Source: Dimargaris cristalligena
Lineage: Eukaryota
Assembly (NCBI GenBank): GCA_003614675.1
Contig: ML002341.1
Coordinates: 1 to 40,217 of the forward strand
Length of the DNA stretch: 40,217 bases
Direction of reading: 5' to 3'
The stretch's first letter is position 1; each line of letters starts with the position of its first letter. Of this stretch, positions 3,527 through 34,300 are shown in pieces. Position numbers and translations under genes: made by a program. The notes below the pieces were generated by a model. That model made no database searches. It saw only the letters and a program-made list of their open reading frames with translations, and was not told the origin of the DNA.

Positions 3527-6500
3527 TTAGAAAATTGCAGTCACGATGCCCGCACCGATGGTTTCGCCGCCCTTTCGCAGAGTAATGCGGCCGAAGCTCT
3601 TGGAATGCTGGAACGTATCCAGGCAAACCGGCCGATCGGATGTGATTTCGATTTTAGCAGCCGAGCTCTTGGGAAGATGTCTTCGAAGAGGTAAACAATA
3701 AATAAATGCAACAGGGCCATGTCGGGAGTTAGTGGTAGTAACAAGGTCTGGTATACTAAATACAGGGGAGTGATAGCAAGAGCTAAAAAGCAGAAACCAC
3801 CACTAATAATGAACGGCCAGTCGCTTACCTCGGTCGCTTTTTAATTACTTCGCCCGATGATTTATCTAATAAGGCCACCAGTTTAGTAATAAAGGCGGGC
3901 TCATTACGACTTTGGTAATGGAGGATGATCTAATAAATATATAACAAAAGAAGTAAGATGTATTCACAAGGTTAGTCAAATGAATGAAATGTCAGAAATC
4001 CATCCAGCCCTCTGTTGATTTCCTGACCAGCACCACCCCACTGAATTATATACCCCACATGTTCATAGTATCTAAAAGGGTAAAAGAAGCCTTCCCCTCT
4101 CCTCCAGCGGATTAATACTCAAATGAATAGCCAAGGCAGCTTACCGGGTACCCCTGCGTAATGGGAACCTTTGTCTCGAATACCACGATTTGAGCTTCGA
4201 ACCGGCTCGTAGTGGGTATCGGGTGGTCACGCGGACACAGCACCGAACCCACACTATACTGGGTAAGATCGATTCCCTGTACTGTCATTAGAATACTGTC
4301 CCCCGCGGCCGCCCACTGCACCAAGTTGTCGAGGTGATCAATCGCTTTGACGGTGCCAATTTCAAGACCGGGTACGAGGGCCAGTCGTTCGCCCACGCGA
4401 ACGGATCCACTTTCCACCCGACCACTGACGGTTACGGTAGTTCCCGTGGTCCCGCCACTGGCGGCCGAGCCGACCGGGATGGTGGCCGCGATGGAGGCGG
4501 CTTGGTTATGTGTCGTTCCACCAAGTAGGCTACCCCGGAAAAAGTCACTCACCGATAGGCGGAAAGCCCCCTCGAGCGTTCGGGTGGGCGGGGCCAGTTG
4601 GTCAATGACCTCGACCAAGCAGGGCCCGGAGTACCATTCGACCAAGGCCTGGGCGTTCGTTTCCTTACTACTAGCCTTTTCCGGCTCGTTTCCGACCCTA
4701 TGGGTCAAATTGGTGCCGCGGAGGCCACTGCAGGGCACAAACACCAACGTCTCGGGTCGGAATCCAATTTGGGTCAAAAAGGCGGACACCTGGTCCCGGA
4801 TTTCCAGAAACCGGGCCTCCGACCAGTCCAGGGTATCCAATTTATTCACTGCTACCACGAGTTGCTGCACCCCGAGACTGCGGGCCAAAATGGCGTGCTC
4901 TTTCGTTTGCCCGTAGTCGCTAAATCCCGCCTCAAAGCCTCCGAGACTGGCGTCCACCACCAGAATAGCAGCGTCCGCTTGTGTGGCCCCCGCAATCATG
5001 TTGGGTATAAAGTCACGGTGCCCAGGTGCATCGAGAATTGTGAACTGGCGGTTTTCGGTTTCGAAATTGGAGGTGGCGATGTCGATGGTAACCCCCCTAG
5101 CGACCATTGATATACAAACCGACATCCGTTGTAGCGGCAGTGGGGTAATGGTTATAATCAATAAATATAGAAGCATGTTAATAGGGTGCAAGGCAATATG
5201 GTCTCCAATAGCCAGGGTATGCGGGTGTAACATGTTAGGTAATTCAAGTACTCTCCGTGGCTTTGTCTCAGGCTCCACTTTTCGGGGCCAAGGTTGCCAA
5301 CCCCAGTAGATATCAATAGTAGCAACTCCCAATTTCCTCCCTTACCTTGACCGTTCCTCTTCGGTTTCGTCCAAAACCCATGCAAAATGGAAAGACGATT
5401 TGCCCGATTTAGCCGCGTCCCGTTCGTATTTCTGCATGACCCGATCGGAAACCTGGCCCATGCGGTAAAGCAAGTGGCCCATCAGGGTACTCTTGCCGGC
5501 ATCGACGTGCCCCACCACAATGATGTTGATGTGGCCCTTACCCTGCCCCCGCTGTTCGAACTCCTGTGCTACATTGATGCGGGGGGCGGTTTTGGTCAGA
5601 TCCGGCCCTTGACTGGTGGGTTTTGTAACCGCCGGGGCTGCGGCGCTGGTCGATGGATCTATTTTTAGCTGGTTCATCTGCGCCACGGTATCACCAACAT
5701 CTTGTTGATTTGGTTGGGAGGCGGCGCCTAATGGAAATCAATCAGCCAATTGGGAAAATGGTGTAAAGTGGCGTTGCAGCCAGTGGGGGTTTTCGGGGTT
5801 AATACCTCAGTTTACGTTCCATTTTGGTAAATCATGGCATTACCATATTCATCAACTTTAGCTAAACTACTCGATCAACGAGGCTAACCAGTGATTCCTA
5901 ATAAAGGCGATTTCATTAAGAAATAGAAGAGAACCCCTCTTGATATGATGGCAGACGAAAACTAATATAGAAACAGGTATGAACAGGAGAAGGCGAATAA
6001 AAATAAGAGAAAATTATGAACTCGTACCTTTAGCGGATTTACCCCAATTGCTACCACTTTGGGCATTCGCAACAATATCATCCCGACTGGGTTGATCGAA
6101 TCCAAAGGGTTGGACCGTCGCAGCCTTGGCTTTCTTATTTTTGTTTTCTAGGGCCCAGGGAGTAAAATACAGCAAATAATTTAACAAAGCAGGGGGGAAA
6201 TTAAAATCCTGTAGGTCCTGGTGGCCTTGGGCCAAGGAATGGTAGAGGTTAGGGGGGATACGGGGGGAAGAAGAAGAGTCGGGGAAAGATGAATGTGTGG
6301 GAGGGGGGGAAAAGAGAAATTGGGCCAAAGGCGAGGGACTGGTTGTAAGAGGCGGCTTGGGGGATTTAATGACCGAGGGGGGGGGGCGGAGCAGCGGCAG
6401 TGGCAGTGACAGCTGGGGGAGAGGCGGAAGTAGAGGCCAGGGGCGGATTTCCCTTACCCAACAGGCCCAGACGTGCTCCGACCGTCCTTGGCTTACTACC

Positions 6501-8240
6501 AGGGGCTGCCATCTGGCCCAAGGAGGGACCAGTTGATGGGCGTTTCTTCATCAGGTCCGCCAACGACGGCTTCGCGGCAGCGGATGTCGAATTTGAAGGT
6601 TTTCCCGGGGCCAAGCTGAGGCGGGGCCGTTGGTTCAGTGCCGGCCGTCCGCCGAGTCGGGGCGTAGCAGCGGAGGCCAACGGCCCTCCTTCAGAGGGAG
6701 GCTGTGTTGGATTTAATCGAAGGCTGGCCAGCGCCGCTGACGCCGAGAATTTACCCTTGGCGCCATGGGCCAGGGAACGCAGGGACGTGGTAGTGGGCGG
6801 TGTCGCTGCCTCCATAGGCGAATTGGGTTCACAGGCTGGTTCCGGTTGTATGGGCTTTATGCGAGAGTGGTCTTCCGAATCAGGAGACGACGAAATAACT
6901 GAACAATCACCAACTTTGTTTTTAAAAATAAGAGAAAATAACGTAGTGTATGTTCAGGTTGGTGAAGTATAATAAACCCCACCCGGTCGAATCAAACCAT
7001 GGGAAATGCAATCGGCTGTTCAGTAGCAGCACCCTCGCCTGTGGTCCCCAGTCCCTCTGTTTGATTACAACATGGTTATCAAAGAATGTATCTTGGAATT
7101 TTGATCAGAGTTTAATTAAATGGACGCTACTTACTTTTACCTTTACTTTTCGATTGAGCAGCACTCTTTTGGCGCTTCTCGGCCGTTTCTATCATAAATA
7201 ACATTAGTATTAATGTGCAGGTTATCAATCGAAAGGTCAGCTAAAGGACTCTATAACGTATGCCCCAGATCCGATTGCTTGGCTTGGTTCAAGTATACAT
7301 ATGGACATGCCAAAGTGTCTACATATATACATATATAAATCAACCCCGAATGCAGAATATCCAAATGAGGGACCTACCTATGGCCCAGCCCAGGGTCTGG
7401 TCCACGTCAAAATAGCTATCCCATAGTACGTCCTGGATCTCTTTATCGGTCATAGGAACCCCGTCGCCTATGACCTCCCTAATCTTGGCAAGACCCTGCT
7501 GTAATTTGGCTGATTTGGATAATAACGATGGTATTGTTTGGAAGGAGCAGCGCATATAGAAAGGGCGGGTAAGAGTATTGATGATGTATACAAAGGGATT
7601 GTATAAGTATGGTGCGGTCACTGTTAGTAGAGTCCCTCTCATTAAAGAATACGGGCCAGAGTAACGAGGGCAACGGGCCCCTCACCCAGCCAGCCTTACA
7701 GTATTATTCCCAGGCGAAACACGATATATGAAACGGCTCGTTTAACGTATAGTCAAAGTATGGTAGCACTGAATGGTGTTTAAATAAAAAGAATTGGCTT
7801 ACCGAAATCCTCCTCGGACATTTCGTCCTCGGGGTATTCTTCGTCGTATTCATCGTCGAATACGTCTAATGGCCATACAATGAGGCATGTAGTCGAAAGC
7901 GGGGGTTGGGTTAAGGACCAACAACATTATATATTTATATAGATAAATACAAAAAACCGACTCAGTTAGAAATTACACCAATTCGTAAAGCCCATGCGCA
8001 CATCCACCCCCTAGGCTCGGCTGACAAATTGGGGGTATTCGGTCTGGTTTCGGGGTGGCGGGTATAGCACCTGGAAAAATACGGGATGGAAGGGCCGAGG
8101 CAATGGAAAGCATGCCCCCACAAAAACCCGCCCTGTCTCGCCCGTTCAAGAAGCGAATGCACCGAACTTGGGAGAAGGCTCTCTATTTGCAATAACCTAC
8201 CGTCGAGATCTAGGTTACGAACGTTGCGGTGGCGTGACAT
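3527..8240 (-). CDS. HBS1: HBS1 translational GTPase (eEF1A/eRF3 family, Dom34/Pelota partner); 8 exons, 625 aa
   Basis: Exons 8240-8201, 7865-7803, 7509-7378, 7188-7135, 5727-5346, 5096-4145, 3929-3829 and 3680-3527 total 1878 nt. All introns are GT..AG with consistent phases. N-terminus MSRHRNVR and HBS1 N-domain (EIQDVLWDSYFDVDQTL). GTPase motifs GHVDAGKST, RGVTID, DAPGH, NKLD and SGL. C-terminus GRITLRKGGETIGAGIV. Confidence 0.95.
6014..6898 (-). CDS. SKI7: Alternative Ski7-like exon inside HBS1 intron 4 (SKI-complex/exosome adaptor region); one-base frameshift at the G10 run 6377-6386
   Basis: Acceptor ttgttcag| before 6898 is phase 1 and in frame with exon 4 and with ORF 6815-6366. Repeated SLxxL motifs (SLRSLA, PSLADL, PSLGQM). 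After the homopolymer come LTTSPSPLAQFLF and PFGFDQPSRDDIVANAQ, resembling the Ski7/HBS1L isoform-3 exosome-binding motifs. The exon ends at TAA 6016-6014 or at a phase-1 donor G|GTACGA (6028|6027). Confidence 0.8.
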
Positions 8241-9022: not shown

Positions 9023-11877
9023 TTAATTGTAGTCCGGTCGGACAAGTTTGCGCAGGGCCAGCATGAGGGTCGCTTGACGCTTGGCTTGGCACACCAAAAA
9101 GTTAATCAGGCAAGTTTCGTCGACACGGAGCTGGTAACCGATATCGTGATTAAAATCACGGGAGGTGATGCTGTCGGGCTGGTATACGATTTTGGTAATA
9201 TACCGGCGCAGCTTTTCGGACAATAGCGCTGGCACCCGATGGTGGTCGTAATCGGACCACTGCACCCCACATAAACTTTGGGTAAAGTGCCACACGGCCA
9301 TCCGGAATGGTTCCGTGTCGATTCCCGAATCGGTCGCCCAAATATATTCGGCGGGGTCACCCACAGTATAGTCCGTCTGCTGGACCGAGAGTCGAAACTC
9401 TAGTTTGAGATGCTCCTCTTGGTCGGACAAATACTGGCCAAGCAGGTAGCTCCCGTGCTGATCCCACGTCAGGTCATTACGGAAGGCTGACTCGGGCTTG
9501 GAACCGAGACCAAGCCCCGGCTTTGGGTACATCACCGGGGTTACCCGGGCATCGGGGCCCAGCACATAGCGATACATGGTACGCTCAAATCGTTGAAGGG
9601 GCGCGAATTTAGGACCTAGCGACATGTGAACATCGGCCATTTCCGGGACGCGGGTAATAATGGAGGGGTGGGCTAGGCTGTCGTAGGAGGCTAGAGGGTT
9701 ATGCGGAACCACGGCGGCCGGAATGGACTGCTCGTCGTCCCCAAATGACACTATGCTGAGCGGAGTCAGAGACAGGGCCTGGTGACTGGGCAAGGAATTC
9801 AACGAAGAAATCTCGGGCATACTAATACTGCTGCCAATGACTTCAGGCACAGGGCTGACGGTGAATTCGGGCATCGACAGATTCGCTCTGTGGTAGTGCT
9901 CATGCCTGGGGTTAGGCTCAAGTAGGTCAGGCGATGCACTGCGCGATAGCTTGGCGTACTTGAATTTCCGTAAGTCGTCTTGCGAGTGCCGGCGGAGGGT
10001 TTGGAGCAGCTTCCACGTCATGGCTTTATTGGCCGGAAGTTGGGCCGTTTCCATTCCGGGGACAGCCGACAGCGAATAGGCAGGAGTGCTCAGGGTTGGA
10101 ATGGGGAAGATTCGGGTAGTGGGTGAATGAAATACATGATACTCCACCTGGCGGTTGATACGAGCGAAGAACGGATCTTCCGTCAACTCTGCCGTGGCTT
10201 GCGAGTTTCGGTAGGACTGATCTGAGGACGACTCAGCGGGCTCCGTAATCAGGGCAAACCCACCCGGTATGTCCACTTCAGGCACTGCCCCACAGCTAAG
10301 GGCCAGTCCTGCAAAGGCGTGGCAGGTAGTGAGTAAGAAAACGGCGTGGCTCAGATCGGAGGCCAGCCAACCTTGGGCCATTGTGTGCGACCGCGGGCGG
10401 TATACCAGTGGGGGAGGGGATGGAATGGCATCGGGCCCCAAAGTCAAAAAGGCCTCTCGCTGCCGGGTTACCCGCTCCATGTTTTCCGTAGTTCCTAGGC
10501 CGACGAACAAAAGCTGGAAGTGATCGCGAGAGACAGCCCAAGGACGATGAGCTAAGAGAGAGTTAAGGTAGGCCAGCGACTGTAGTTTGGGGGGCACGTA
10601 GTTCAGTCCGGCGAGCCATTTTGGGTCTCCCTCGTGGCGCAAGAACTCCCGCTCGAACAGGGATACGCCGTAGTAGCAGTTGAGCTCCGCACAGGCCATG
10701 ATGGCCAAGTAATAGCGCTGGGCCATCGGAAGATGCCCGTTCATCCGGATTTGGGCATTGATATTAATGAATGTATTGGTGAGGAGAGTTGGGAAATACA
10801 TGAAAATACGGCCCAGGTGGTTTAGACGGTGATCCTGGCAGAACAAGGACTCGGCCGCTTCCTGTGCCGCCTCGCTACATTCAATTTCTTCCTTGTCATC
10901 GCCCGACTCATACACGCAGGAGGGGAATATGGGGTCGTAAAGGCCCGATGGTGACAGCAAGTGTGTAAAGTCCTGTGCCTGGATCGGCTTCTGAGGCAGT
11001 TTGACTAGGTAGCGAGGCAAGATAAAAAACGACGGGGAGCTGGTGAGGGGCTGGGGAACCAGATATTTGTACTGTTCTAAACGGCCTAGATAATGTGACC
11101 ACTTTAGACGAGTCTCCGGAAAGGGACAGTTGATGCTTAAATGCAGTGCGGTGAGGATACGTACTACAACCAAGGACCGAATGTGTCGCTCATCCCGAGT
11201 ACCTAAAGTACCGAGATTTTTCTGGTGTTGCTGATGGGGAAGGAATGGGGCGAGGGCAGGGAGCCCAAGCGGACTATGCATAGATGGGGCCGGCAGGTTC
11301 AACTGGGGCAGCTCAGGGCTCAGGTGATCGGTGGGCAGGGACAACGATTGTGAACGACTGTGAATAGAGTGCACCTTGCGAATTTGGGGCTGGTCTGAAT
11401 GGCAGGGAATGAGGCTTGGTGAGGGGGAGTGATGAGCTCCCGGCCGCGTAGGGAAGTACGCCTCCGAGTGATTCAATGGGCGGGCTCCGTAGAGGGTGCG
11501 CTTAAGACAATGCCAAGTGGTTTTGGTGGCCTCCAAGCGGCCCTTGATCGACGGGGAGTATACAAGCCGTAGGGGTTGGCTGGCTTCGTACAGGATACTG
11601 GGCTTTCGGACATAGTCGGCCACCTCTATCAGTATGATCAGCAGTACATTATGGGGTATATAAAAAACCGGTATGATGAAAATAGGTAAAATCGCACTGT
11701 TAGTAAAATCATCCGTAAGATGGTGGAAAGTGTTAGCAAATGAGAATCTTAACGGTCGGTAGAGATGGTTAAAATGCACGGCCGGGTTCGATAATTGCAA
11801 GGCAAAGGAAAAGCGAGAGGGAGATTAATAGACAATCCGATTAACTTACCTTCATGAAAAGCACAGTTGGGGTCCAT
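9023..11877 (-). CDS. SESN: Sestrin (PA26 family) homolog, about 876 aa, 2 coding exons
   Basis: Exon 11877-11850 (MDPNCAFHE, G|GTAAGT donor) joins exon 11625-9023 (TAG acceptor, phase 1 matches). Sestrin motifs: GHLPMAQRYYLAIMACAELNCYY, GDPKWLAGL, PPKLQSLAYLNSLLAHRPW, LTWDQHGSYLL, DTEPFRMAVWHF, DETCLINFLVCQAKRQATLMLALRKL. The ORF-track start at 11800 falls in the intron. Confidence 0.9.
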
Positions 11878-13351: not shown

Positions 13352-16300
13352 CTCGAAAGGATAGCGGGGGATTCGGGCCAGTGCAGCCCAGAAAAAGAGT
13401 GGGTCCGCGCACACACTGTGGAAGGGTGGGTAAATGCCCTTGCCGGCTTACACGTATACATACTATGATGAGTAGCATAGCCGGTGACTAAATGGGAGCC
13501 ATTGACATATACCTTCTTAGATGGTGCATACAGTGTGGTAGTACATCCACCCTCCCTCAATGCGCATACAAAGAATGGTCCAAGAAATAGGCTGGAGTAA
13601 TAAGGCAAGGCGAGTGCATTGAGCATTTGGAAGTAGAGCCATGTGTTGCGGTGAAAGGCCTGCAAAAACCCCACTCCCCCCAACGTACGTCGGCGCATAT
13701 ATCCCGTATAAATATTGAATCATTGCCGTTTTTCGTTGTTCAAATGCCATTCAACTCTTCTCTTTCTTGTCTCTGATAAATTGTACGGACTCATTGGACC
13801 AAAGTGATGCCCCCCAAAGTAAGTAAATAGCCGTGGCGATTTCCCTCACATTAAAAAGGTCCATCCTAGGGTGGGATGTGGGTGTCATCCGCCTCCTCCC
13901 ACGCTTACTGTGCCCTCCGCCCCCTCTCTGGATTATTTCGAACTTTTCCACGGGGGGGGGTCCATTTAGCCAGGCTACTTCCAAGGACGGCCCGGAATGG
14001 CTAGATGTTGTCTACTCCCCAGCACCTACTGACCTGGTCAACAAAGACTCCCAACGAAGGGGTGTTGTTCGGTAGATTTAGCTTTGGTGTGCATTGTTGA
14101 TTTTAGTTGGTATCAACCTGGCCTGTCGATCCCTAACTGGTGTCGTCCTCAACCCACTTATCGATTTCTGATTCTGCCCCACACAATGAAGTACGTGGTA
14201 CCCCTATAGCTCGTCCCGCCCAGATTTGAAAACCACGGGTACGCCGCCCGCCAAACGTCAAGTGAGCGGGCGCAAGGGGCAAATCAACTGATAGTTACTC
14301 GACCAAGCCTCCCCTAAGTAATAGTTGCATAGTGCAATTTAACCAAGAACGCCACGAAAAATCCCAATTCTCAAATGAAAATGATAACCACATAGATGTT
14401 CGTTTTTCCTATACCCCCCTTCATCACCAGTATTTAGTCCCACCGTTTCCCAACACTACTCAGCTATATTGTGGAGATAGTTGTTCCACAACATACATCT
14501 CACCAGGTCACAACCATTACTACCTATATCACTGGACCCATTGACCTGTCCGATGGCCCGATAGCTGGTGCCAGATGTCCACTCAGCATTTAATCGGATA
14601 TTATAAACTACAACTTACTCCCCTATTACAGTGGTCGGGAAAAAAGGGAAGAAAGCAACCAGCTGCACGGGTATCTTTGTGGCCAATCCATGTTTAAACG
14701 CAACTGGATACCTTGCATACACTCGCCACCTAAACAGCCCTATAATGCGAAATACCGAGTGAGCAACCTTCGTTCCCCCAAAAGACACCACGCCTACATA
14801 CCAGCTAGACATGATCCTCTATTCATACTGCCTGGTTATAGAATGGTTGCAGGACTTTAGTCGTCATCGATGAATACCAACAGGTAAGTCCGTATTTGGT
14901 CAAATGACCAACATCTCACTCTAAGGGTGTCGTGGTCATGGTCGCGGATGGATCTATATCGCATCTGCATCTCGGCCAACTCCGACTTCCGACCATCCAG
15001 CCAGTAAGCCCCGTTGACTCGCCCAGCCTCCCTTTTGCCTCCTTATATTCAAGGGGCTGATTATGGATGCATCGGAATAGAGAGCTGCTTCTTCCCCTCT
15101 CCGTTTATGGTCTATCACATCTTATCAGTTATTCCGATGCAGATTCACTGTCGTGGTATATGTAAAATCATATCTAAGAAGGACCGGGATGAGGTGCAGA
15201 ATCATAAAACGTACAGAAAACAGAACTCGTGCTATCCCTCGGTAACTTAGTCAGATTATCCCATGGTAAGGTATACGTCTTTACCCGACGCTATCCATTC
15301 GGATGTATTCAGGCTCTAACGAATGATTCACTCCCACCCAGATACGAAAGATGGCATATTATAGCACGACAACTAACTGCCAGTGCGTCTCCTCTGACGT
15401 AGTCTGGTCTGTTCCATATGTGGTTTCTATCGGCCTATTGTCCCGACCACAATTGCTATATTCCTGCACTATTGCTATGGTTCCCATGTTGGGCGTTTGA
15501 TGGGTGATGAGGACCGGGTTTGCAGCTGAAGACCGGAAGAACACATACGTACAGTCCGTGTGGCTGAACTTACGAGAGCCTCCCGCTCTTTCTGCTATAT
15601 TTCGGCTGATGAAAGAACCGATGGTGTAACGCTCTGCGATGGCAACAGCCAGGCCCACGGGCGTGGTGGAGAGATACCGGACTGGGAAATGACCCAAACC
15701 GCATTGACTGCCACGGCTACACTGCCCCAACCCTATCCAGTACGCACCCAATATGGCTGTGTTTGGAGACAGGGGTGTGTACATTGGGCCATTTCCCAGC
15801 CTAGATCCGCCATTAGCCATGAGTACCGCGGAATAAGACTTCTACGAGTAGCATCCCTCTCACATACCCTCCTTCTCCAGCCTCCGATTTCCTATCCACC
15901 CGACGTAGGGGGCTGTGTCTACCAGAGGTCCGTTTGTGATTCGGTCCTAGGTCGCACTGATCCCAATTTGGGCTGACATTTTTGGTGGTCAAATGAGGCC
16001 GTTGGTACTTGCAGATTCCAATGTAAAAAAAAAGTCTAACCCACTGTGAATGAGTGGTTGATTCGTCTGGTAGTATTAATGGCTGGTCTTAGGGTGCATA
16101 TGTTTATTGTCTCCATATAACATTTGTCTTGAAAAGTGGTGCGAAGAAGTGTGGTTCACTCTTTGAGATATAAAAGGCAGGGCGAGCAGGAGAGCATGGA
16201 TCCGAGGAGAATGGATTCTCTACCCAGACAGCCAATAATACAGATGGCAGGATTATGGAGTCTGGAGTCTGGCCTTCTCTGCTTCCCCGTCTAGCACCTT

Positions 16301-17664: not shown

Positions 17665-20600
17665 TTGCCTATTTGGGCCATTCGGTATAAATCGGGAGGG
17701 CACATGTTGGTATAATCGGAAACAACCTTATACCGCCGCCATGGACTTTGACAGTGCCCAAGGAAATGCCTTCAAGGGCGAATGCATAGATGGTGGATGG
17801 TAGAACCAAGGCGGGCCCAAAACAAGCTCGATAAGCGGCTCTAGACCCAATCCGCTCAGCCAAGGAAAAAGGGCCGGCACTGAGCAATCTATTTTTTTCC
17901 AAAATGAGAAAGGAAAGACTGACCACAATATCAGAATAGGGTGCTTCCCCCTCTATATCTTTCCATTTCGGATATCCAGTGGGATGTTGAATTAGCTGCT
18001 GCTAGAATAAACATAGACAAAACCTGGGTTTTATTTTTATCGCTCTCCCTACCTTATCAATTACCCGGTCTATTATTCTCTAGCGGTTAGCCGCATGGAC
18101 ATCCATTCACTGGTTTAAACCACTGTTCACTCGAAAAAACCGGTTTTTATCGCGCACCATTGTTCCCACCATTCCCCGGTCGGACTTTTTATTTCATTAT
18201 ATATTCTTTGATGAAGAAATAGGGACAGTCATAATCCGACTCCCCCAGACGATACTTCTCAATAGAGGGATTTTCCCCCGGCGGGATACACGCCCACTGG
18301 GCTCATAAGGCACACGAGACATAGTCCACTGACAGTGTATAATGCCAAGGCTGACCCTACCCAAACTGGGAATGTGTAGTGATATCAGTAGCCTGGTTGA
18401 CTCGTCTAGAGTGCATGGGTGTGTGAATAGAAGGGTTAGCAATATACACGACGTTTAGTGGGGGTAGACTTGGGTTTTCCAAAGATCCCTCGGGCGAAGG
18501 TAAGTGCAGCCAGCTAGTTCAACGCCCTAGGCAACTCTAGATAGCTAGATACCCCTCTTACACGCCAGTAGACGATGAACTGTCGATTCGGCCAGAGGGG
18601 CTGGATATAGTTACTTGTCCTTGAGAAACCTTGCGGCTGTAAGATTGTAATGGATATACCCTGCTAGTAATTGGTAATACGGGATTTACCCTTAGCATGT
18701 TTCCGGGACTGCCGGCCGGTAACTATGGGCAAACTTCCCAGACATTTAGGCAAAGGCCCAGATGAGGCTACAGTAATGCTGCCGAAATTGCACAACGCAT
18801 CACCAAGGAACCACCCATTAGATAAGTTTGGTGCTCGCGAGAGCGATGGAGCAGGAATGTAGCAACAAACGGAGCGTATCGAATCCCAGCCTCTCCTGTT
18901 TGAGCCCGGCCGCCTAGATCTGTCTTACCGTTGGTGTTCTTCTAGAGACCATTCCACGGAAGTCTTAGAGAAGCCGCATTGAGATACCCGGCCTGGCCTG
19001 ATTAGGCATACTATACATTGGTTTCTAGAATAGGAAAATACGATTTGAGGGGGAAAGGGCGGCCCAAAGGTTCACCTCACTCTTCACTGGTTTTTTGACG
19101 TATGCCAGAAGGGGGAAATCCACCCTCCCTTCCCTCTCCATCCCACACCATGGGTTGTTACTTCATGCTGCGATCCGATAGTCGGCGCCCTTTAAACCAG
19201 TGGCGGTTGACCCAAGATGGCTCAGTGGGGACAGTGAACCCGCCCCCATGTCGCCATACTCCCATAGTCCGACCAAAATTGACCGAATGAGTACCTCCCA
19301 GTATATGACATAGGGCAATGTGGATAGGCATCCACGGCGTCCCTGACCATAATATTCACAAGCCATAGCCTAGTTTGTCTGTTGTTGCTGTTGTTTTTCT
19401 ATCATCAACCGACCACCGGGGCGATGGTGGTGAAGAATCGTGAACGAATGAATAGGTAGGAAGGAACACGAAATAAACGCCCCCCCCCGCACAAATAGGA
19501 ATTGTCAGCCTGGGCCAGTTTGGGGTTCTACGTGGCCGGATGTTGTGGATAGTTTACGCTGTAGCCTTGCTGACAGTAGTTGTTTTTTTTTTCGCCCGTG
19601 GAATGGTTCGTGTGAGGCACGGAGCGGTTGGTGCTACATCCCGGTTTCTATGGAGTGGTGGACTATCCGAATTGTCATGTTCATCAGAGGGGCAGTTATA
19701 CACAGCGGAGTAAATATATATGATGCCCAATATCACCTACTGAAGGGCATGTATACTCGTCTTGCTAGCCCTCTGCATCGGTTGGAGGCCGAGTCTAACA
19801 AATGACGTCCCCCTGATACGGCGACCTCCTCCTACATGGAGTCACTGACTAGAGGTGATTTCTTAGGAACCATTCGTTGACGCACGTTGAGTCGCATACG
19901 ACAAAGTCTATACACCGCCTATTTATTATTACAGCGCAAAAAAACGATGCTAGCGTGAATGGAGTATGTAAGGCCAGTCGGCGGGCAATACTAAGCCCTT
20001 CTGGTGAGTTTCCAGGTCTATCGCATGAATTGTTAATTCGACGGGGCGATACACGTGTGTGGTGGAGAGGGATTTTGTATAGAACACCCTCGTGGCGTTT
20101 CCAAGCAGTGGGCATGGGTGCGGGATATTACCCCTCATTCCCCATTGGTATACTAAGCGAGAGTGCTGCAGGATTTTACCAGGGCTTAAAGCGTATTAGC
20201 GGGTGAAGGTGGGGTAAGTATCGCAATTAATCTTAAAGCATGACCTGTCCAGATGCCAACTTAATGCCACTAAGTCCAAGCGACACTTAAACATCGATAA
20301 TGTCCCCCTCCCTCCCACTCGCGCGTGCGACTGGTTTGGTTACTGGGGTCCACGGGTTAGCCAAATCATTGGAGTGAAATTATGGGTGGAACATACGTGC
20401 GGCTATTAGCTAGGGCCACCTCGAACAGGGTGTGTCTAACCATGCTGGCCTGGTTCAGGCTGATAGTAACCACCACCCTGTCTATGTTTTCGCCTGATTA
20501 TTATGGTTTGGCGCACTAGTTATTTGGTCCATGCCAAGAGAAGATGTGGTGCATTGGGCTCTCCATGGCCTAAAGCACCCCCACCCGGACATCTGGTCGA

Positions 20601-21040: not shown

Positions 21041-22121
21041 GTTTAAACAGCCGCGGTAGGTCGTATCAGATGCCCACCAGACCGGCCTGGTTTCAGGCTA
21101 AACCATATTCCGTAACCCCATGGTGCACAGGGAGTCACACACCCCAGCAGCCGGAGAACTCCTTCAAGGACCGCGGGGGCTTCCCGAACGAAGCTAATTA
21201 TTAAAGACTCATTAGTTCTCCGTATCTTGTCGAGTAGGAAAGATGTCTTCCCTTCGTGCCTTCTATAAATCAATGGGAGAAAGTGGGTCGTACGGCGCGG
21301 GGGAAAATGCTAACCTTTAGGCCTTTTCAGCCAAATAGGAAGACAGGGAGGGTTACAGCGTTGGGTTTGGCCTGTTGAACTCGAGACGAGGCTGTTGTCT
21401 TCCTTCCGCCTGCCCTACCGAGGCGCTGGATGGGGTAGTGGTCCCCCTCTGAGAATTCGATAATGGCAGGACCCGTAGTAGTAGTATATCGGCCGCCCTT
21501 TTGTATAAGTAAGCCGCCAGCCGTCCGCTCTTCATGATACGCTGCCCTCCTACTACCATTATCATCATAGAACTCTTCTCCTTGTTTATTCTGGAAAGCG
21601 CACCCCACACTGGCGGTAGGTTGTTTTTCAACGGGCTGTCGACCAACCCCCATAGCCTTTTCCGTTCTCATTATATTCGCCCTCTACTACTACGGCCTTG
21701 GCTTATGTTAGGATTGGCCCCGTTTCCTATTGTCGCGCGGTAATTGTAGTGGCGACCCTTATGAATTAACGGCACCTGCATTAGCCTCATTTTAAGCCGC
21801 CCTCTGGCCTGCATATACTGTCCTTTCTTATATTCTCCCTTTTTTTCTGGCTATTGTTGTATGCATTTATGCGCCCTGCTTTATATATGTCAGTTCGACT
21901 AAGTCCCACGGCTTGAAGCTATAGTTGACTCCGCTCACCGTGTTCTTTGAAACTCTTGACATTCGCACTCTCCTCGGTTATCTCTTCTTCCTTTATTTTT
22001 CTGTTTTCTATTTGGCCGTGTTTGGTTTGAGCCCATTTCCCGCCTCCACCTCTTCTTTAGTCTGTCCATTCCTTCGTTTCCCCAAGGCCTGCTTTATATA
22101 ACCTTTGCCCCCTCCCGTTCT

Positions 22122-23447
22122 ATGCTCAAAATGTTCGGCAACTCGAGTGCCCCGCGCACTCGTCTCAACCGCCTCGTATGGTCCTACCTGCCCGACTGGG
22201 TTCTGGTGATCATCATGGCCCTGGCCTTCTTCGCCATTGACAAAATTCACCCCTTCCGCCGTGAATTCTCCCTCGAGGACAAGACTATCCAGCACCCCAT
22301 GAAGCCCGACACCGTCACCCCGACTATGCTTATTATCATTTCCTTCGTCATTCCCATTGTCGTTATCTTTTTTAACGCCGTCTTTATCCGTCGTAGCTGG
22401 TTTGACCTGCACCAGGGCTGGTTGGGTTGTATGCTGGCCCTGACCCTGACTATCATGGTTACCCATACCCTTAAGGTTACCGTGGGTCGTCTGCGCCCCG
22501 ACTTTATCGACCGGTGTAAGCTGGACCGCAGCAACGGAACCCCCACTGACCCTGGCATTGGCCTGTCCAACTCCTCCCTATGCACCCAGACGAACAGTAA
22601 AATCCTCCGGGACGGCATGAAGAGTTTCCCTTCAGGCCACTCCTCCATGACCTTCGCCGGCATGACCTATCTGACCCTGTACCTGGCCGGTAAACTCCAT
22701 ATCCATGACCAGAAGGGTCACACCATCAAGACCTTTATCACCATCATGCCCCTGCTGGGCGCCGCCCTGGTCGCTGTGTCGCGGACCTGTGACTACCGCC
22801 ACCACTGGCAGGATGTCACCATCGGCTCCATCATTGGTATTCTGTGTGCCTACTTCGCCTACCGCCAGTACTATCCCCGTTTGGCTTCCCTCACCTCCCA
22901 CCGGCCCTACTCGCCCCGTATCCCCGCCGACGACGATGAAATGGGTCAAGGTCGCCTGGCCCGGCCCCAGCGCTTCGGCGCCAGCCCCGAGAACTCCATG
23001 TACCCCATCCCCGAGCGTACCAACCCGTCCGGTAAAGCCAGCTCCGCCGGAACCAGCCACCTAAACCCCCATCTTCCCGACTACAATGACACTACCGATG
23101 CCCAGACCATTTCGGATGACCTGGGGTACACTCCGGCGGTCCACCCCCATGATGCCACGGCCATTTCGGTGGTCCCCTACCACGCCAACCGGAGCGGCGG
23201 TGGGAACCAGTATCTCCAATCCCAGCCCTCCTCCTCCTCCCAGTCAGGTAATTTAAATATTGTTCACTCTACTGCTACTTCAACACCCTCTACCTTAAAT
23301 GCCCCCCATGTTTTGGGTGGCCTGTCGCCTACTTACGGTAACCACCCGAGTGATTTTGGCCGGACGAGTTTCAATAGCGAGTCCGAACTATTGCCAGACA
23401 CCAATAGCCCCTACCACCTGCGGGAAATCCGAACCAATGGCCAGTAG
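22122..23447 (+). CDS. DPP1: PAP2-family lipid phosphate phosphatase (DPP1/LPP1-like), 441 aa, single exon
   Basis: All three catalytic motifs are present: KVTVGRLRP (KxxxxxxRP), PSGH and SRTCDYRHHWQD (SRxxxxxHxxxD). About six hydrophobic segments and a long S/P-rich C-tail. DPP1 versus LPP1 orthology is not resolved. Confidence 0.93.
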   Translation: MLKMFGNSSAPRTRLNRLVWSYLPDWVLVIIMALAFFAIDKIHPFRREFSLEDKTIQHPMKPDTVTPTMLIIISFVIPIVVIFFNAVFIRRSWFDLHQGWLGCMLALTLTIMVTHTLKVTVGRLRPDFIDRCKLDRSNGTPTDPGIGLSNSSLCTQTNSKILRDGMKSFPSGHSSMTFAGMTYLTLYLAGKLHIHDQKGHTIKTFITIMPLLGAALVAVSRTCDYRHHWQDVTIGSIIGILCAYFAYRQYYPRLASLTSHRPYSPRIPADDDEMGQGRLARPQRFGASPENSMYPIPERTNPSGKASSAGTSHLNPHLPDYNDTTDAQTISDDLGYTPAVHPHDATAISVVPYHANRSGGGNQYLQSQPSSSSQSGNLNIVHSTATSTPSTLNAPHVLGGLSPTYGNHPSDFGRTSFNSESELLPDTNSPYHLREIRTNGQ

Positions 23448-25207: not shown

Positions 25208-26724
25208 TCAGGAATAAAAGTCCGCCAACTCAATGACATCATTGGTGGCGACTACCAAGTAACAGCCGTTGCTTATGGATTTCGATGCGACCAAGTCACT
25301 TAATCGGCAGGCCTTGGGTAGGTATGTTTTGGCCATAATAGAGTATAGTCTCGTTTCCTAGTTGGTGAAATCAAAGCGAATTTCAATGTAGGGGATTGTT
25401 AGTCTCGTATTCCACGGGAATGTCTTAGGTATTCGGGGATAATTGTACAAGTGGGATATCAAGTCAGTCATTTTTACGCGAATACCGACTCCAGCTTAAC
25501 CCCAATAGATTGAATGCAAAATGAATGGATGGTAATTAAATAGATCCTCGGACTGTAATGTATAGATGTGCCTTACTGTAGTCAACGCTGACGGCGATAT
25601 CTTTAGACTCGACCAAATTATATCAATGGCCTTGCCCACCAGAGTATGCTAAACCGAAGAGGGGAGATGAGGTAAAGTACAATTATCGGTAGTCAAATCC
25701 CGGATTAGTCCCTGCAGGATTAAAGTCTCCGAAGGTTGGGGTCCCCCCTATTGGTTCCTATCAATAGTATGTGGGGGGGGGGGGGGGGGAGGAAGAGGAG
25801 GGATTGTGTGGTCCTACCAAAAACCAAAAAACATGGAGCCACATCGAACCCACTAAGTAAGAAAACTCATTCCATAATTTTACCTGGTCAAGATAGCATT
25901 CGAGATCCGGCAAGTTGGGCTTATGGTGAAGGCGAACCCGGAAATAGAGTCGATCGGCTACGGGTGTTTTGGGATTGCCCGTGGCTCGGGTTTTGAGCTT
26001 CATTAGTTCGACCATGGAAACTCGGGGGTTGGACCAGGCGGGGGGTGGTCGCGGTGATACTGATGCTGATACCAATGCTGGTACGGCTGGTTGGCAGGGT
26101 GGGTCAGTTTTGGCTAACGATGCGTTTGGTTTACGAGTGTGACGGTCTAGGCCTAGGGTGGTTCGGATGGCCTCACGCTTTCGTTGGCGATCAACGGCCG
26201 TCTGATCGGCTTCGGCTTGGATTTGGGGGCACTGGTGTTCGTCTGGATGGCGGTGCCTGTGTGTATGCAATATACGGGTATTTATATAGCATATTATAGA
26301 ATACGCCACGGTGAAGGCGGTTAGAATAGGATAATCGGGTTATAATGGGGTTTTCCAAGCGCCGGCCCATTAGGCAGGACTAGCACTGCCTCTTGATACT
26401 CCCATATTAGTTTTCACGGTTATATATTACGTACTCGAAGCAGTAGCCCTGGCGGCACCGGGGACATACGGCGATGGTGATGCTCCGGGTGCGACAGTGG
26501 GAGTTGGCGCAGGGGATTTTCAGTGACTCGAGACGCGGTTGGTTAGGGCCGCTACCGGAAGTTAGGGTGTCGGGGGACTCGGTTGCCGATGGACACTGGT
26601 GACTCAATGGCAGGCGATGGGTGAGGCAGAACGTCTGGTGACATAGTTGGCATACAAACGGCAGAAAGTCCAACTGGCCACACTTGGCCAATGCGCAATT
26701 ATGGCCCACTTGAGGTAGCTCCAT
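25208..26724 (-). CDS. ZFAND1: AN1-type zinc-finger protein with C-terminal ubiquitin-like domain (ZFAND1/Cuz1-like); 4 exons, 294 aa
   Basis: Exons 26724-26435, 26256-25884, 25648-25577 and 25357-25208 total 885 nt with consistent phases. MELPQVGHNC..C..LDFLPFVC..C..FC..HR..H.C; second AN1 finger CPRCRQGYCFE|HRHPDEHQC; MKLKTRATGNPKTPVADRLYF; VGKAID; ISNGCYLVV. Confidence 0.88.
25773..25789. repeat. G17 homopolymer in ZFAND1 intron 2
   Basis: Read directly from the sequence. Confidence 0.85.
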
Positions 26725-27212: not shown

Positions 27213-30200
27213 ATGCAGTGGAATCGGCCAGGCAGCCAAAATGCGTCAGGGTTCAAACCCAAGTTTCAATTCGGACTGCAGGCCGGCAAGACCCTATCCA
27301 AACCCGCCGAGAAGAAGCTGACTAAAAATGCACTTACTGGCAATAACGATACGGACGACCAGAGTGACGGTGTCCCTAAATACCGACCCTCCCTTCGGTT
27401 TACTGAGCAGTCCCAGCCACCCATTGGCTCAGAAGGAGAAGATATTACACTCGAGAAACCACCGTCACCACCCGTAGGTAGTTCTTCGCTGCCGGACGAA
27501 GGAACCTCTGAAATACGCCGATGGCCGAGCCCGGAACGAACTGAGTCTGGTGAACATACCCTATCTGCTCCCGAATCGCTCTCTCATGACCAGGCCAATA
27601 TAAAAGCAGTTGGTGGTGCCGTACTAAAGGAAGATGAGGAGGAGGAAGAAGATCCGCTGGAAGCGTTTATGGCAGGTATCGACCGACAGGTTCAGCACGA
27701 ATCAAGTGCCCCGAAGAAATCCCCACCGGTAGGTCTACTTTTATGCATGGATCCCTTAGATTCAACGAATACAATGCGCCATTGTTTGAAATTGTGATAT
27801 CCGCTGTCCTTAAGCCCAACCCTCCACTGCTACTCATCGGAATACGGGTAAATGGTCTACTTTACCACTCTAATACCAATTTGTATTATGTTGTGCTATT
27901 CGACACTACTCTCTATATTCACCACGAACTAGTTCCGGGCTGAACGCTTGAATAAAGATGACCCACTCGATAATTTTCAAGAACTTGAAGAGGCATCGGC
28001 CGCCAACCCGGGTATGTTGGTCCGTACCGGCACCTTGGATAATTCCGACGACGAAGTGTACGAAGCGGCCCGCCTCGCGGACGAGCGACTAGGTGACTCC
28101 GAGTCCACTTCCGAGCCGCTATCCAAAGACGTTGAGCCGCTAGCCGCCATTGATCACTCTAGCATCGCCTACATTCCCATTGAAAAGAATTTCTATCAGG
28201 AACATCCCGACGTCAGTCGGTTGAATGACGCGGAAGTATCCCAACTCCGGCGGGATTTGGATATCTCGGTTCGGGGCGCGGGGGTGCCCCGACTGGGGCT
28301 TTCGTTCGCCCATTTCGGATTAGATACTGACCTGTTGGACGGGATCGCGGCCCACGGCTACCGGGAGCCCACCACGATCCAGAAACAGGCCATCCCCACC
28401 GCCCTCACGGGCCGCGATATTATTGGCATCGCCCAGACGGGTTCGGGCAAAACGGCGGCCTTTATCCTGCCCCTCCTCGTCCACTTGCTGGACCAACCGG
28501 AGCTGGAGCCGGGCGAAGGTCCCATTGGTTTAATTTTAGCCCCGACCCGCGAACTGGTGCAGCAGATCCACCGCGAGGCCCGGCAATTCGCGGGGGTTTA
28601 TGGGGGCGGGGCAGTACGGTGCCGCATGGCTTACGGCGGCACCTCCCGTATGGTCCAGTTCCGGGAACTGCGGCACTCAACCGTAGATATTCTGGTGGCC
28701 ACCCCGGGGCGCCTCATCGATTTGGTGAAAATGAAGGCCACCTCCCTTCGGCGCGTCTCGTACCTGGTGCTGGACGAGGCCGACCGGATGTTAGATTTGG
28801 GGTTTGAACCCCAAGTACGATCGATTTGCGAGCGCATCCGACCCGATCGCCAGACCCTGCTGTTTAGCGCGACTTTCCCCCGAAAAATTGACCATCTGGC
28901 CCGCCAAATCACCCGCGATCCGGTCCGGATTGCGATTGGGCAGATAGGTGAAGCGAACAGTGATATTCGGCAACATTTCCATATTTTACCCGACGACACG
29001 GCCAAATGGGAGTGGCTAAGGGTCCATATTACCCCATATTGTATCGAGGGCAGTGTATTGATTTTTGTCGCCCGAATGGGGGAAGTGGACATTTTGGCCG
29101 AAGGTCTACACGCCATGGGAATAGAATGTAAGTAACTCTCTTTGAATTGTTTAGGCTGGTTATTGCTTCAAAGGACCGGCGTATGACATTTAAATCGTCT
29201 GAAACTCTCGCTTTTTTTTTGGCAGAGGTCGTTGTGGGTCAAGCTACACCACCACCCGGAGGGGGAGAATTTCCGATGGGCGGAATCGAACACCCATTAA
29301 CCGGTGGTGCCACTTTTTCTATTTCCCCGACGGATGCATTGCATATATTTTAGGCGGCACCATCCACGGCGGTATGATGCAGTCTGAACGAGACCGGGTG
29401 ATTCGAGACTTTAAAAACGACAAATTATCGGTGGTCGTGGCGACTGACGTTGCAGGTAAGTAAGCGTGTGGGCTTGGTTTATCCGACTTGCTTTTTAGAG
29501 AGCCGATTGGGATGTTGGAGTTGCTCACCCTTCTTAAATCGACTCTTTCTTTCCAGGGTCAGATTTCGAATTGAATGATGCTATGAAATCCTCATCCCCA
29601 CTTAACCATGCATTTATTTAACGACAGCGGCATTATATATATATATATATATACTCTTTTAGCGCGGGGACTGGATATCAAATCTATCCGGACGGTGATC
29701 AACTACGACCCTGCCCGGGATATCGATTCCCACGTTCATCGAATCGGACGGACGGGTCGGGCGGGTATTAAGGGTGACGCCCATACGCTTTTGAGTGCCA
29801 AGGAATCGAAGGCGGCGGGTGATCTGGTTCGGCTACTGGAGTCGGCAGGGGACAGTGTCCCTACCGAAGTAATGAGTCTGGCTATGCAGGTAAGTAGTCA
29901 AGTGGACTGCATGTTGGGTGGCTGCAGACACGGTAAGGGGTCGATTATATGAAAAAGGGAGGGGTAATTAGATGGATCGAATATGCACATGATATAAAAG
30001 ACGCACCTTGTGAGTTGACTAGGCTGGCGGTAAAGTTCACTTACATACCCTCGTTAAGTTTTTTTACCTCTACCCCAAAGTTGGTGAACTTCGGGTGGAC
30101 TTGATAGCAGGGAATATAGTATAACTCATCGTTGTTTTTAATCTGCACTTCTGAACCATGACATGTCCCGGTGCTAGAATCCCAAATTCCGACAGTCAAG

Positions 30201-31333: not shown

Positions 31334-34300
31334 ATGCAGCCCATGCCCACTGCCCTAAAGCAATTGCTCTCCAAAGGCGATGTCAAAGCCGTCAGCTCCC
31401 TTTTCCACCAGGAACACCCGCGCAGTCGGGCCAGCGGCCGTTGGTCCGGGTCCGTGGGGCTTGGCATACCCCGTAAACCGTCGCACCGTTTACCGCAGGC
31501 CTTCGCCGCTTACATTATCACCACCGAAACCCGGGTCGAGTCTAACGCGGCTCGCAAGAAATACACCGCGTATAAGGTCCTGGTCTCCAACGGACCAACC
31601 CAAACTTGGGTAGTGCGTCGGTATAGTGACTTTTACCAGCTGCACCTTCAGGTCAGTGAATATATACAAAACCCCCCGCTTAGTCCATTTTGCGACCGGG
31701 CCAATTTTTACCCCTTATTTCATCATGATACCTCTCTCCTGTACCCTCATGCGTCTGGCCCAAAGCACTCAATATGCCCTCTCTCTAACGAACTATTCCA
31801 CAAACCTTGCCGCGAATGTACGACTGGTATATTAACCTAATTTTACTCCAATTGCATACCCCGGATTCCCATCTATACGATAAATACCCCCTCCCCTCCT
31901 ATGCTGTGTTTGGCGGGGCTGCAGATTGGCAAACGATTTCCCACCAAGAAGCTTCCCCCATTCCCGCCGAAGCGTTTGCTAGGTAACCATTTTTCATCCC
32001 AGTTCGTGCTGGCCCGCCGGGAGCAGCTCAATCAATACCTGGCGGCCATTACCAGCGACCCGGAAATCCGATGCCTGGATATGGTCAAGGGGTTTTTCAG
32101 TCATATCGCGCTTGAACCAACGTTCTTCGACGGACCATCCAATCCCACCGAAGTGCCAACTAACGGAGTAACCCCACGCCAACGGCCCGGTGGCAATAGC
32201 GGTGCTAGTTCTGCGCATGGTGTTGGAAATAACCGACTGTCGATATTCAGTTTATGGCGCAACTCGTCCAAATCAGCCGAACCCTCTAATAGCCGCAAGC
32301 CGCCCCTACCACCATCGGCCATAGCAGTCGTATGCGCCTCCCAGGCCCCGACCTCCAGCCCCGGAACACCCTTGGCACATGACCTAACCCCGGTCCGGCC
32401 GGTGCCCGTCAAACCGGCCTCACCCGATGACCCTATGCTGAAACGGCGCACCTTCTCCGTTTATAATGCCCGCCGTAAATTAGGTCTAATTAAGCGAAAG
32501 GATCTTACCAAGAAGCGGCGAGTTCACCTACCACCGGTCAATGGGATCCAAACTACCCCATCACCGTCCCAGTCGTCCGAAGCGAAATCTACCGAGGCGC
32601 CGACCCATTCCACGAGAACCCCGGAGGGGGGTGTGGTCAAGGCCAGCCGTCGCTTATCGCTTTCGAGTACCGATGATCCGTACGATCAGGACGAATTAAC
32701 CCGAGATACGTCTAATCCTTGTTTTCCGCGGGACAACACCACTATTGACGATTTCTACCTACTCAAGGTCATCGGGAAGGGCAGCTACGGCAAGGTAAGT
32801 TGTAATAACCCTGGGAACAAATGGAGACTGGTCACATAATACCTTCCACATGATAGCTTTTGCAAGCCCCATGACCAGCGTTGAACATCGACCATAATAC
32901 TATTGGCGAGCTGTATCTAGCCCCATTAATCCAAATACAATTGAAACGAATATCCGACCACCCTTATATGAACAACCCAATTGGACTTCCCTAGGTCATG
33001 CTCGCCCGGCATAAAAACTCGGGCAAAGTGTACGCCATCAAAGTAATCACCAAGAAGTCCCTCCAACGCCGACCCGGGGATATCGCCCGGATTATGGCTG
33101 AGCGCAATGTATTGGCCCGTAATATCAGTCACCCTTTCCTAGTCGGACTCCAGTACGCTTTCCAAACCACCCAGAAGCTGTACTTCTGCATCGACTACGT
33201 CAATGGCGGCGAGCTCTTCTTCCATCTCCAACGGGACCAGCGCTTTGACGAAAGGCGGGCCCAATTTTACGTGGCTGAAATCACCCTGGCCCTGGAGTAC
33301 CTGCACAATCTCAACATTGTCTACCGGGATCTCAAACCCGAAAACTGTCTACTAGACTCCAAGGGTCATATTCGTATCGTCGATTTCGGATTGGCCAAGG
33401 ATGTCTCCCGGGCGGCCGACGCAAAAACCTCCACCTTCTGCGGCACCCCCGAGTACCTAGCCCCCGAAGTCCTCCGCCAGGAGGCCTACGGGAAGAGCGT
33501 AGATTGGTACTGTTTGGGAGCGGTGCTGTACGAAATGTTGGTCGGAGCACCCCCGTTCTACTCGCGTGACAGCAAGGACATGTTCCACGGCATTCTCCAC
33601 GGGTCCCTCGAATTTCCGGACCATGTCAGTCCTGTGGCCCGCGATCTAATCGTCCGACTTACTTCGCGGAACCCACTCACACGGCTGGGATCGGGGGTCC
33701 GGGGCTCGTACCATGTTAAGGCCCATCGGTTTTTTGAGGTAAGCATATCACTGGTTTCGGCTAATGGCTTAAAGTGAAATACCTTTAGAGTATGAAGTCC
33801 CTTAGAATCATTTGGGGGTATGATTACTAACCATTTTCGATGAATTATATTTTATTATTATAATAATTATCTGGGGGGTGTAAATGTCCTAAATTTTTCG
33901 TATTCTCTAGGGTATCAACTGGAAGAGGCTATACACCAAGGAAATCACTCCGCCGTACAATCCGGATGTGGTATGTAGTTTCAGTAATCCTGATTGCCCT
34001 ATTAACGGTTGCATAAAGTACCGGGCCACTCTAATCATCTAACGGCCATTTTAATAACTATAATGGCCATCAACTCTGACCAGTTAGATCCGAATCTAAC
34101 ACATCACTGAACCACAATATTGCCCATTATTGTCCTATTTCTCTCGTCTCGGCCCCCCCCCCCAAAACTGTAGGCCGGTATTTTCGATTTAAAGCACATT
34201 GACCCGGCTTTTAGTAATGAACCCATCCCCCAGTCGCTACTCGATGAGGGAACCATTTCCCTGGCGTTACGCGAAGAAGTCGATAGCCACATTCCCCCTT

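Follow-up and report, generated by a model that had tools for sequence, protein, structure and literature searches.

Results

An HBS1 orthologue with one long intron

The stretch of Dimargaris cristalligena DNA analyzed here (contig ML002341.1, positions 1 to 40,217; referred to as the window, 40,217 nucleotides (nt) in length) carries on its minus strand, from 8240 to 3527, an eight-exon HBS1 gene, and our subject is a block of sequence within the fourth intron of that gene that resembles the adaptor protein Ski7. The exons match the Pfam families HBS1_N (PF08938, E 4e-10), GTP_EFTU (PF00009, E 9e-32 and 3e-12) and GTP_EFTU_D2 (PF03144). The gene is an HBS1 orthologue, in which HBS1_N is joined to an eEF1A-like translational GTPase, and this is the identity given to it by an earlier interpretation of the DNA made from its letters alone (hereafter the sequence-only reading). 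The coordinates of all features are collected in Table 1.

Exon ends were set by reading of the sequence together with an anchored string search. Introns 1-3, 5 and 6 measure 335, 293, 189, 249 and 215 nt, respectively, and intron 7 measures 148 nt. Intron 4, in contrast, measures 1407 nt against the 148-335 nt of the other six, and these lengths reproduce those of the sequence-only reading. All seven constitutive introns open with a GTA[AG]G donor. Since each of exons 2-4 is symmetric, of phase 1-1, and phase 1 is also accepted by exon 5, exon 4 (ending at 7135) joins exon 5 (starting at 5727) in frame, as had also been claimed.

A coding block within intron 4

GC content runs at 0.44-0.71 across the block (~6050-6880) compared to 0.35-0.43 in the flanking parts of the intron, and inclusion of the block leaves sub-introns of 236 and 300 nt, both inside the range of the other HBS1 introns. 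The acceptor postulated by the sequence-only reading, TTGTTCAG/TT at 6899/6898, is present and phase-1 compatible. At the opposite end, the donor AAG/GTACGA at 6028/6027 is phase 1 in what we term frame B and in frame with exon 5, and its GTACGA deviates from the GTA[AG]G of the seven constitutive introns. What we term frame A (6896-6387) holds 0 stops in 170 codons, where the alternative frames have 5 and 7. Frame B (6376-6029) is likewise free of stops and ranks first of the three frames in a codon test (log-likelihood ratio +14.6 bits), which we take as weak support given a crude training set with 30 stop codons and control exons that were among the training sequences.

Proteins of related fungi contain the same block. 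A phmmer search with the frame-B translation against 1.84e9 representative proteins yields a single hit, P0001 (E 7e-10), to which word-indexed searches add P0002 (E 1e-18 by BLASTP against frame B) and P0003; a profile search among longer proteins returns P0001 and P0002 only. All three proteins come from the order Dimargaritales, two from Tieghemiomyces parasiticus (P0001 and P0002) and one from Dispira parvispora, are named as hypothetical, elongation-factor-like proteins, and each carry HBS1_N and a GTPase. In one continuous frame between these two domains, the relatives present SLxxLA-type units (four in P0002; two LxxLA units in P0003), then PSxLAxF[LI], and, onward in the same frame, an LY/VYxx[LV] helix, [YC]F[TP]PW and [PA]F[GTK]FDQPSRDD[ILV]V, with FDQPSRDD[LV]V carried by all three. 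The best alignments of frame A land on the repeat region of these relatives. Because the three proteins hold these elements in a single frame between HBS1_N and the GTPase, the intronic block, judged by its homologues, is real coding sequence, and because both halves lie in one frame in the relatives, frames A and B belong to one exon. The expectation that automated annotation would probably miss the block was not borne out in the lineage, since the Dimargaritales models found include the region in 3/3 cases.

Candidate Ski7-type motifs

The minus strand encodes each of the elements SLRSLA, KPSLADLM, PSLGQMA, SPSPLAQFLF and PFGFDQPSRDDIVANAQ. At 6115-6059 lies the Patch 4-like motif QPFGFDQPSRDDIVANAQ, with one departure from consensus in its core, namely R for P. 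Published Patch 4-like consensus sequences are given as IaPF[D/R]F[K/D][S/T]aSPDDIV+A in animals and IaPFKFDaPSPDDhV in plants (PMC6143672), and the motif of the human splice form HBS1LV3 as PFDFxxxSPDDIVKxNQ (PMC5389692). By hand count, the window sequence matches 10 of the 14 specified positions of the human motif, and the block motif VQPFGFDQPSRDDIVANAQ fits the Patch 4-like consensus as published. Translated in all six frames, the window (80,430 positions) contains the pattern PF.F...S.DD[ILVM]V a single time, compared to an expectation of 7e-6.

Both the motif and the SRDD variant that the sequence-only reading had noticed in place of SPDD are conserved in related species: FDQPSRDD stands in 3/3 Dimargaritales HBS1-like proteins, and the P-to-R departure with it. 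The SRDD form is a lineage-specific variant of the Dimargaritales, where the proline-to-arginine change would appear to be tolerated in the Patch 4 core. A PSxDD-type motif lies ahead of the P-loop in all eight HBS1_N-bearing long proteins found, and the long HBS1 forms of Ustilaginomycotina (P0004-P0008) read F.GPSPDD.V in 5/5. At residues ~120-260, upstream of PSPDD, P0004-P0008 also bear repeated units of the type S/K-L-x-x-L-A-A-A-R, reminiscent of the SLxxLA units of Dimargaritales; multi-copy SLxxLA-like units may represent a conserved short linear motif for binding of the Ski complex.

Upstream of Patch 4, the block was compared with the SKI7-like motif forms RxxxFxxxL, A+PShFAahL and A+SLFaaa[P/L]. 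SPSPLAQFLF is kept as PSxLAxF[LI] in P0002 and P0003, and AKPSLADLM fits A+PSh without the F; PDB searches with a single sequence and with a three-sequence profile gave these candidates no statistical match to known motifs. LYHSLAQ is comparable to the DLYKAF/DLYKTF described for plant and human SKI7 (PMC6143672). A low-confidence AlphaFold model places helices on PLAQFL (helix 1, residues 16-21, at low confidence), LYHSLAQ, PALLNYLLYF and RDDIVANAQ, and the order of these four predicted helices is that described for plant and yeast SKI7 (PMC6143672).

The two T. parasiticus proteins, P0001 (680 amino acids) and P0002 (788 amino acids), are 77-88% identical in their N-terminal part, and P0001 is without the SLxxLA repeat segment of P0002 while Patch 4 is kept. 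Possible accounts are that they represent paralogues or haplotypes, or that the gene models were chosen differently within the same exon.

A reading-frame break at a run of ten cytosines

The sequence-only reading presented the exon as in frame throughout and did not mention that, as one piece, it is broken. Frame A, entered from the 6898 acceptor, runs for 177 codons to a TAA at 6368-6366, ahead of SPSPLAQFL and the PFGF motif. SPSPLAQFLF and PFGFDQPSRDDIV lie in the +1 frame (frame B, a stop-to-stop open reading frame (ORF) at 6547-6014). The SLxxL repeats, SPSPLAQFL and the PFxF motif thus share the strand that had been assigned to them, but the latter two fall outside the frame of the acceptor. 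Frames A and B are both open only at 6547-6366, and a C10 homopolymer (6386-6377) lies inside that overlap. As assembled, the exon 6898-6028 is 871 nt, or 3n+1; minus one C, it becomes an open 870-nt cassette of phase 1-1. If so corrected, the alternative exon (6898-6028) and exons 2, 3 and 4 (7865-7135), all on the minus strand, are symmetric phase 1-1, and each of them can be skipped without a change of frame.

The break is probably a homopolymer length error in the assembly, most likely of one base. This explanation is favored because the motifs of frame B are intact and because the break falls in the most error-prone type of sequence. To check the C run, we used contigs from three DNA runs; a further run, X5, supplied none. 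The X1 contig ends at 6378, within the run, and the X3 contig at 6402; the X4 contig reaches 6377 and then continues into 13 extra G's fitting nothing. Since all three fail to bridge 6333-6376, the length of C10 is without independent support. A homopolymer frameshift of this kind would cause any gene caller to miss the Ski7 isoform of this assembly or to call it truncated.

A real and recent frameshift in this isolate, which would truncate the product after the SLxxL segment at the stop 6368-6366, is the alternative that survives best, although we consider it unlikely. The window does read C10, both frames are otherwise intact, and no contig contradicts the run. Under this alternative, the transcript would probably be targeted by nonsense-mediated decay, and the part that binds the exosome would be a freshly dead pseudo-exon. 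Frame B, however, is open over 177 codons, is 40-52% identical to the relatives and keeps its motifs invariant, so that a real mutation of the C run would have to be very recent. Moreover, no kind of sequence is more prone to length errors than the one in which the break lies, the contigs of short reads stop short in 3/3 runs, and Ski7 function is described as conserved across eukaryotes (PMC6143672).

The probability left over after an assembly artefact and a real frameshift goes to alternative acceptors or recoding. Were C10 genuine, the full Ski7-like protein might still arise by +1 recoding, through transcriptional slippage or ribosomal frameshifting, or the product might be a truncated adaptor with SLxxL units only; we regard either outcome as highly improbable. 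If true, an SLxxL-only adaptor would bind the Ski complex without the exosome and would have a built-in role in antagonizing or regulating Ski-exosome coupling.

Other routes through the block were also considered. An internal intron could restore the frame in 183 GT/GC-AG combinations, but this rescue was rejected: a GTA[AG]G donor is missing from all of them, and each would take out GC-rich, exon-like sequence. Acceptors at 6495 and 6486 are phase 1, lead into frame B and give in-frame cassettes without correction, but are unlikely in view of their poor pyrimidine tracts and a W/C/H-rich peptide unlike the relatives. The acceptor at 6225, which gives a clean 198-nt cassette, was rejected, for it would remove the conserved LYHSL and SPSPLAQFL.

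Other long G/C homopolymers occur in the window, namely G17 at 25773-25789, C11 at 34153-34163, G9 at 13952-13960 and C9 at 19480-19488. These may be further spots of unreliable run length; since they do not lie in clear coding frames, they are uninformative on the error rate of the assembly.

Discussion

One gene with two proposed products

We favor, at a probability of roughly 0.6, the reading that this Dimargaritales fungus (Zoopagomycota) possesses a single SKI7/HBS1 gene with two products and that the break in the block is an artefact. We infer the alternative use of the block exon from sequence, and its weak donor GTACGA and symmetric phases are consistent with an exon that can be skipped. 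Splicing of exon 4 to exon 5, with block 6898-6028 skipped, would yield canonical Hbs1, composed of HBS1_N, linker and translational GTPase, the form expected to partner Dom34/Pelota in ribosome rescue. Inclusion of the block as a phase 1-1 cassette would insert ~290 residues between HBS1_N and the linker and thereby produce a Ski7-like adaptor. In order, the insert would comprise a disordered SLxxL(A/M) segment, PSxLAxFL, an LYxxL helix, a YFTPW helix and the Patch 4-like QPFGFDQPSRDDIV. The SLxxL(A/M) units may serve as amphipathic helices of the Ski3-binding type, like H1-H3 of yeast Ski7; binding of Ski7 to Ski3 is described as occurring via short Leu-bearing helices (PMC10659929). The C-terminal motifs, including the Patch 4-like one, would contact the exosome cap and Csl4.

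The two-in-one system proposed by the sequence-only reading is right in kind, with its splicing presumptive, and is retained in part: the block is coding and homologous to three relatives, but the exon is frame-broken as assembled. Its parallel with human HBS1L isoform 3 likewise applies to the motif resembling Patch 4 but gives way at the phase-1 donor, which leads into a GTPase exon as in the relatives. Because the donor 6028/6027 matches the phase of exon 5 and the models of the relatives read into the GTPase (3/3), the Ski7-like isoform probably keeps the GTPase domain.

A number of observations weigh against the two-product reading and temper its probability. As assembled, the alternative exon is not open, the acceptor frame stops before every exosome-type motif, and 0/3 DNA runs (X1, X3 and X4) supply a contig across the C run, with 6333-6376 uncovered. 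The excess of SL..[LM] in frame A (three occurrences against a shuffle value of 0.32, P 0.003, and 0 in both other frames) concerns a pattern picked after the data had been seen, and frame A resembles the relatives only marginally (BLASTP E 1.1; Smith-Waterman shuffles P 0.02-0.18). The critical R, F and L residues of human RxxxFxxxL are without a clear match in the block, and confidence in the AlphaFold model is low (mean predicted local distance difference test score 59). Profile-profile comparison of Dimargaritales with Ustilaginomycotina aligns 27 columns and no more, all at Patch 4 (P 7.6e-4, probability 25%). Neither half of the exon matches a Pfam family, a single-sequence search of PDB gives no match, and the ESM Atlas gives no usable hit. 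The three-sequence profile search of PDB returned two decarboxylase chains (E 0.49), which are spurious, and neither Ski7 nor HBS1L3. A metagenome scan matched 175 pattern stretches and confirmed 0. With no Pfam, PDB or Atlas match, class membership rests on the motif, its position and the homologues of the lineage. Finally, the block is annotated as constitutive in 3/3 relatives, so that skipping is not shown in any member of the lineage.

This last observation bears directly on the possibility that the block is a constitutive exon, giving one long Ski7/Hbs1 fusion-type protein that either does both jobs or leaves Hbs1 to another gene. The region is included in 3/3 Dimargaritales protein models found, and the homologue matches contain 0 HBS1-only proteins from T. 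parasiticus or D. parvispora. Gene models, however, are predictions with one isoform each; the long form of Lachancea kluyveri is reported not to complement hbs1, and skipping is reported from basidiomycete transcripts (PMC3597508). The cassette is also symmetric 1-1, and its donor GTACGA is unlike the GTA[AG]G of the seven constitutive introns, as expected of a skippable exon. A constitutive exon is accordingly a doubtful explanation, a little less so than the next.

An isoform of the human HBS1LV3 type, as implied by the sequence-only reading, in which the donor at 6028 is unused and translation ends at the TAA 6016-6014 to give a product without the GTPase, is somewhat more doubtful still. 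The stop lies just 4 codons beyond the putative donor, that donor is weak, and a truncated form is described as proposed in basidiomycetes and established in vertebrates (PMC3597508; PMC5389692). Through this stop, a truncated form is possible alongside the GTPase-bearing one. Set against it are a donor that is exactly phase-compatible with exon 5, models of the relatives that run from Patch 4 directly into linker and GTPase (3/3), and the absence of a visible AATAAA when 6027-5728 is read by eye.

A non-coding intron, or an opposite-strand gene, with the motif present by chance might be argued from the lack of a Pfam hit in the exon and from a 199-amino-acid plus-strand ORF at 6373-6969, but is effectively refuted by homologues at the right place in HBS1 proteins (E 7e-10 and 1e-18), by a motif expectation of 7e-6, and by a block region whose opposite-strand ORFs have no Pfam family and which shows no meaningful tandem-repeat array and no Rfam family.

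Comparison with known SKI7/HBS1 systems

Numerous Ascomycota and Basidiomycota are described as having a single, alternatively spliced SKI7/HBS1 gene, which in Ustilago and Cryptococcus works by exon skipping (PMC3597508), and a shared gene is described in plants and animals (PMC6143672); the one-gene arrangement has already been published for fungi, animals and plants (PMC7491326, citing Marshall 2018). The arrangement itself is already known, and the two-product reading would extend it to Dimargaritales (Zoopagomycota) and support an origin before the split of the major fungal phyla. Searches of the full-text literature return no paper joining Ski7 with Zoopagomycota or early-diverging fungi, and among the papers listed for Ski7 and Mucor none is on topic; Marshall et al. 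2018 may cover early-diverging fungi.

The GTPase-retaining, exon-skipping type of basidiomycetes and plants fits the block better than the terminal exon of the human type. In Ustilago maydis and Cryptococcus neoformans, as in the model for D. cristalligena, a single gene is reported to yield Hbs1 by skipping of one or more Ski7-like internal exons between HBS1_N and the GTPase (PMC3597508), and the Ustilaginomycotina long forms P0004-P0008 also carry LxxLA units and F.GPSPDD.V ahead of the GTPase. Unlike the present case, these fungi are Basidiomycota rather than Zoopagomycota and have SPDD rather than FDQPSRDD, and the profile alignment extends over only the 27 columns of Patch 4. L. kluyveri resembles the model in that two products come from one gene and the GTPase is retained in the long form, but differs in employing alternative 3' splice sites of one intron instead of a cassette exon (PMC3597508). 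Skipping in U. maydis and C. neoformans is reported to be backed by expressed sequence tags, and L. kluyveri provides functional proof in that each isoform complements its own mutant only (PMC3597508), whereas the D. cristalligena arrangement is a prediction from genomic sequence.

Arabidopsis At5g10630 offers a further parallel, for its cassette is described as adding a SKI7-like motif upstream of Patch 4 with retention of the GTPase, and the four helices predicted here follow the same order, from motif helix through a DLYKAF-type helix to Patch 4 (PMC6143672). Arabidopsis, however, is described as encoding Patch 4 outside the cassette and as having a Zn finger (PMC6143672); here the motifs all share one exon, and a Zn finger is lacking. 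The human HBS1LV3 exon is similar in its position after HBS1L exon 4 and in a Patch 4 motif that ends the Ski7-specific region; it is described as terminal and its protein as lacking the GTPase (PMC5389692), in contrast to the phase-matched donor into the GTPase found here. RxxxFxxxL, the exosome anchor of the human protein, has no clear counterpart in the block, and S-R-DD replaces the human S-P-DD.

Saccharomyces cerevisiae Ski7 shows the same order of modules, namely N-terminal Ski3-binding short helices, exosome-binding helices and a GTPase-like domain, but is described as the product of a separate intronless gene that arose from duplication (PMC4942675, PMC10659929). PDB searches with the single sequence and with the profile detect no sequence match between the exon and the chains of S. 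cerevisiae Ski7.

Table 1. Features of the HBS1 gene and of the block within its fourth intron.
Feature	Position	Strand	Remarks
HBS1 exon 1	8201..8240	-	ATG at 8240; phase 1 at end; MSRHRNVRNLDLD matches N-termini of P0002 and P0003
HBS1 exon 2	7803..7865	-	Acidic N-terminus; phase 1-1
HBS1 exon 3	7378..7509	-	HBS1_N domain, Pfam PF08938, E 4e-10
HBS1 exon 4	7135..7188	-	Phase 1 at end; donor AAA/GTAAGT
Upstream sub-intron if block included	6899..7134	-	236 nt, AT-rich
Putative Ski7-like alternative (cassette) exon	6028..6898	-	871 nt as assembled; acceptor TTGTTCAG/; donor AAG/GTACGA; homologous to P0001, P0002 and P0003
Frame-A half	6387..6896	-	S/T/A/P-rich, probably disordered; SLRSLA 6785-6768, KPSLADLM 6572-6549, PSLGQMA 6527-6507
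C10 homopolymer	6377..6386	-	Required frame-switch site; probable 1-nt length error
TAA	6366..6368	-	Closes frame opened by 6898 acceptor
SPSPLAQFLF, candidate SKI7-like motif (helix 1)	6311..6340	-	Counterpart SPPSALANFL in P0002, HPSSFSQFIL in P0003
LYHSLAQ helix (predicted)	6227..6247	-	Counterpart LYRDLAT in T. parasiticus proteins
Patch 4-like motif VQPFGFDQPSRDDIVANAQ	6059..6115	-	FDQPSRDD invariant in 4/4 Dimargaritales sequences
TAA in motif frame	6014..6016	-	4 codons beyond donor; would end GTPase-less protein if donor unused
Downstream sub-intron if block included	5728..6027	-	300 nt, AT-rich; donor GTACGA
HBS1 exon 5	5346..5727	-	Linker and GTPase start, P-loop GHVDAGKST; accepts phase 1; Pfam GTP_EFTU
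HBS1 exon 6	4145..5096	-	GTPase and domain 2; GTP_EFTU E 9e-32, GTP_EFTU_D2
HBS1 exon 7	3829..3929	-	
HBS1 exon 8	3527..3680	-	Includes stop codon; boundary placed by match to P0002 C-terminus

Other genes in the window

On the plus strand, an ORF at 36400-37428 matches no Pfam family, and Pfam matches identify a PAP2 phosphatase (21960-23444), a DEAD-box helicase (27933-29132), a PX-domain protein (31841-32836) and a protein kinase (32995-33774). Immediately upstream of HBS1 lies a minus-strand gene (9026-11824) with a strong match to the PA26/sestrin domain in three stretches (Pfam PF04636, E 3e-68), a family mostly discussed for animals.

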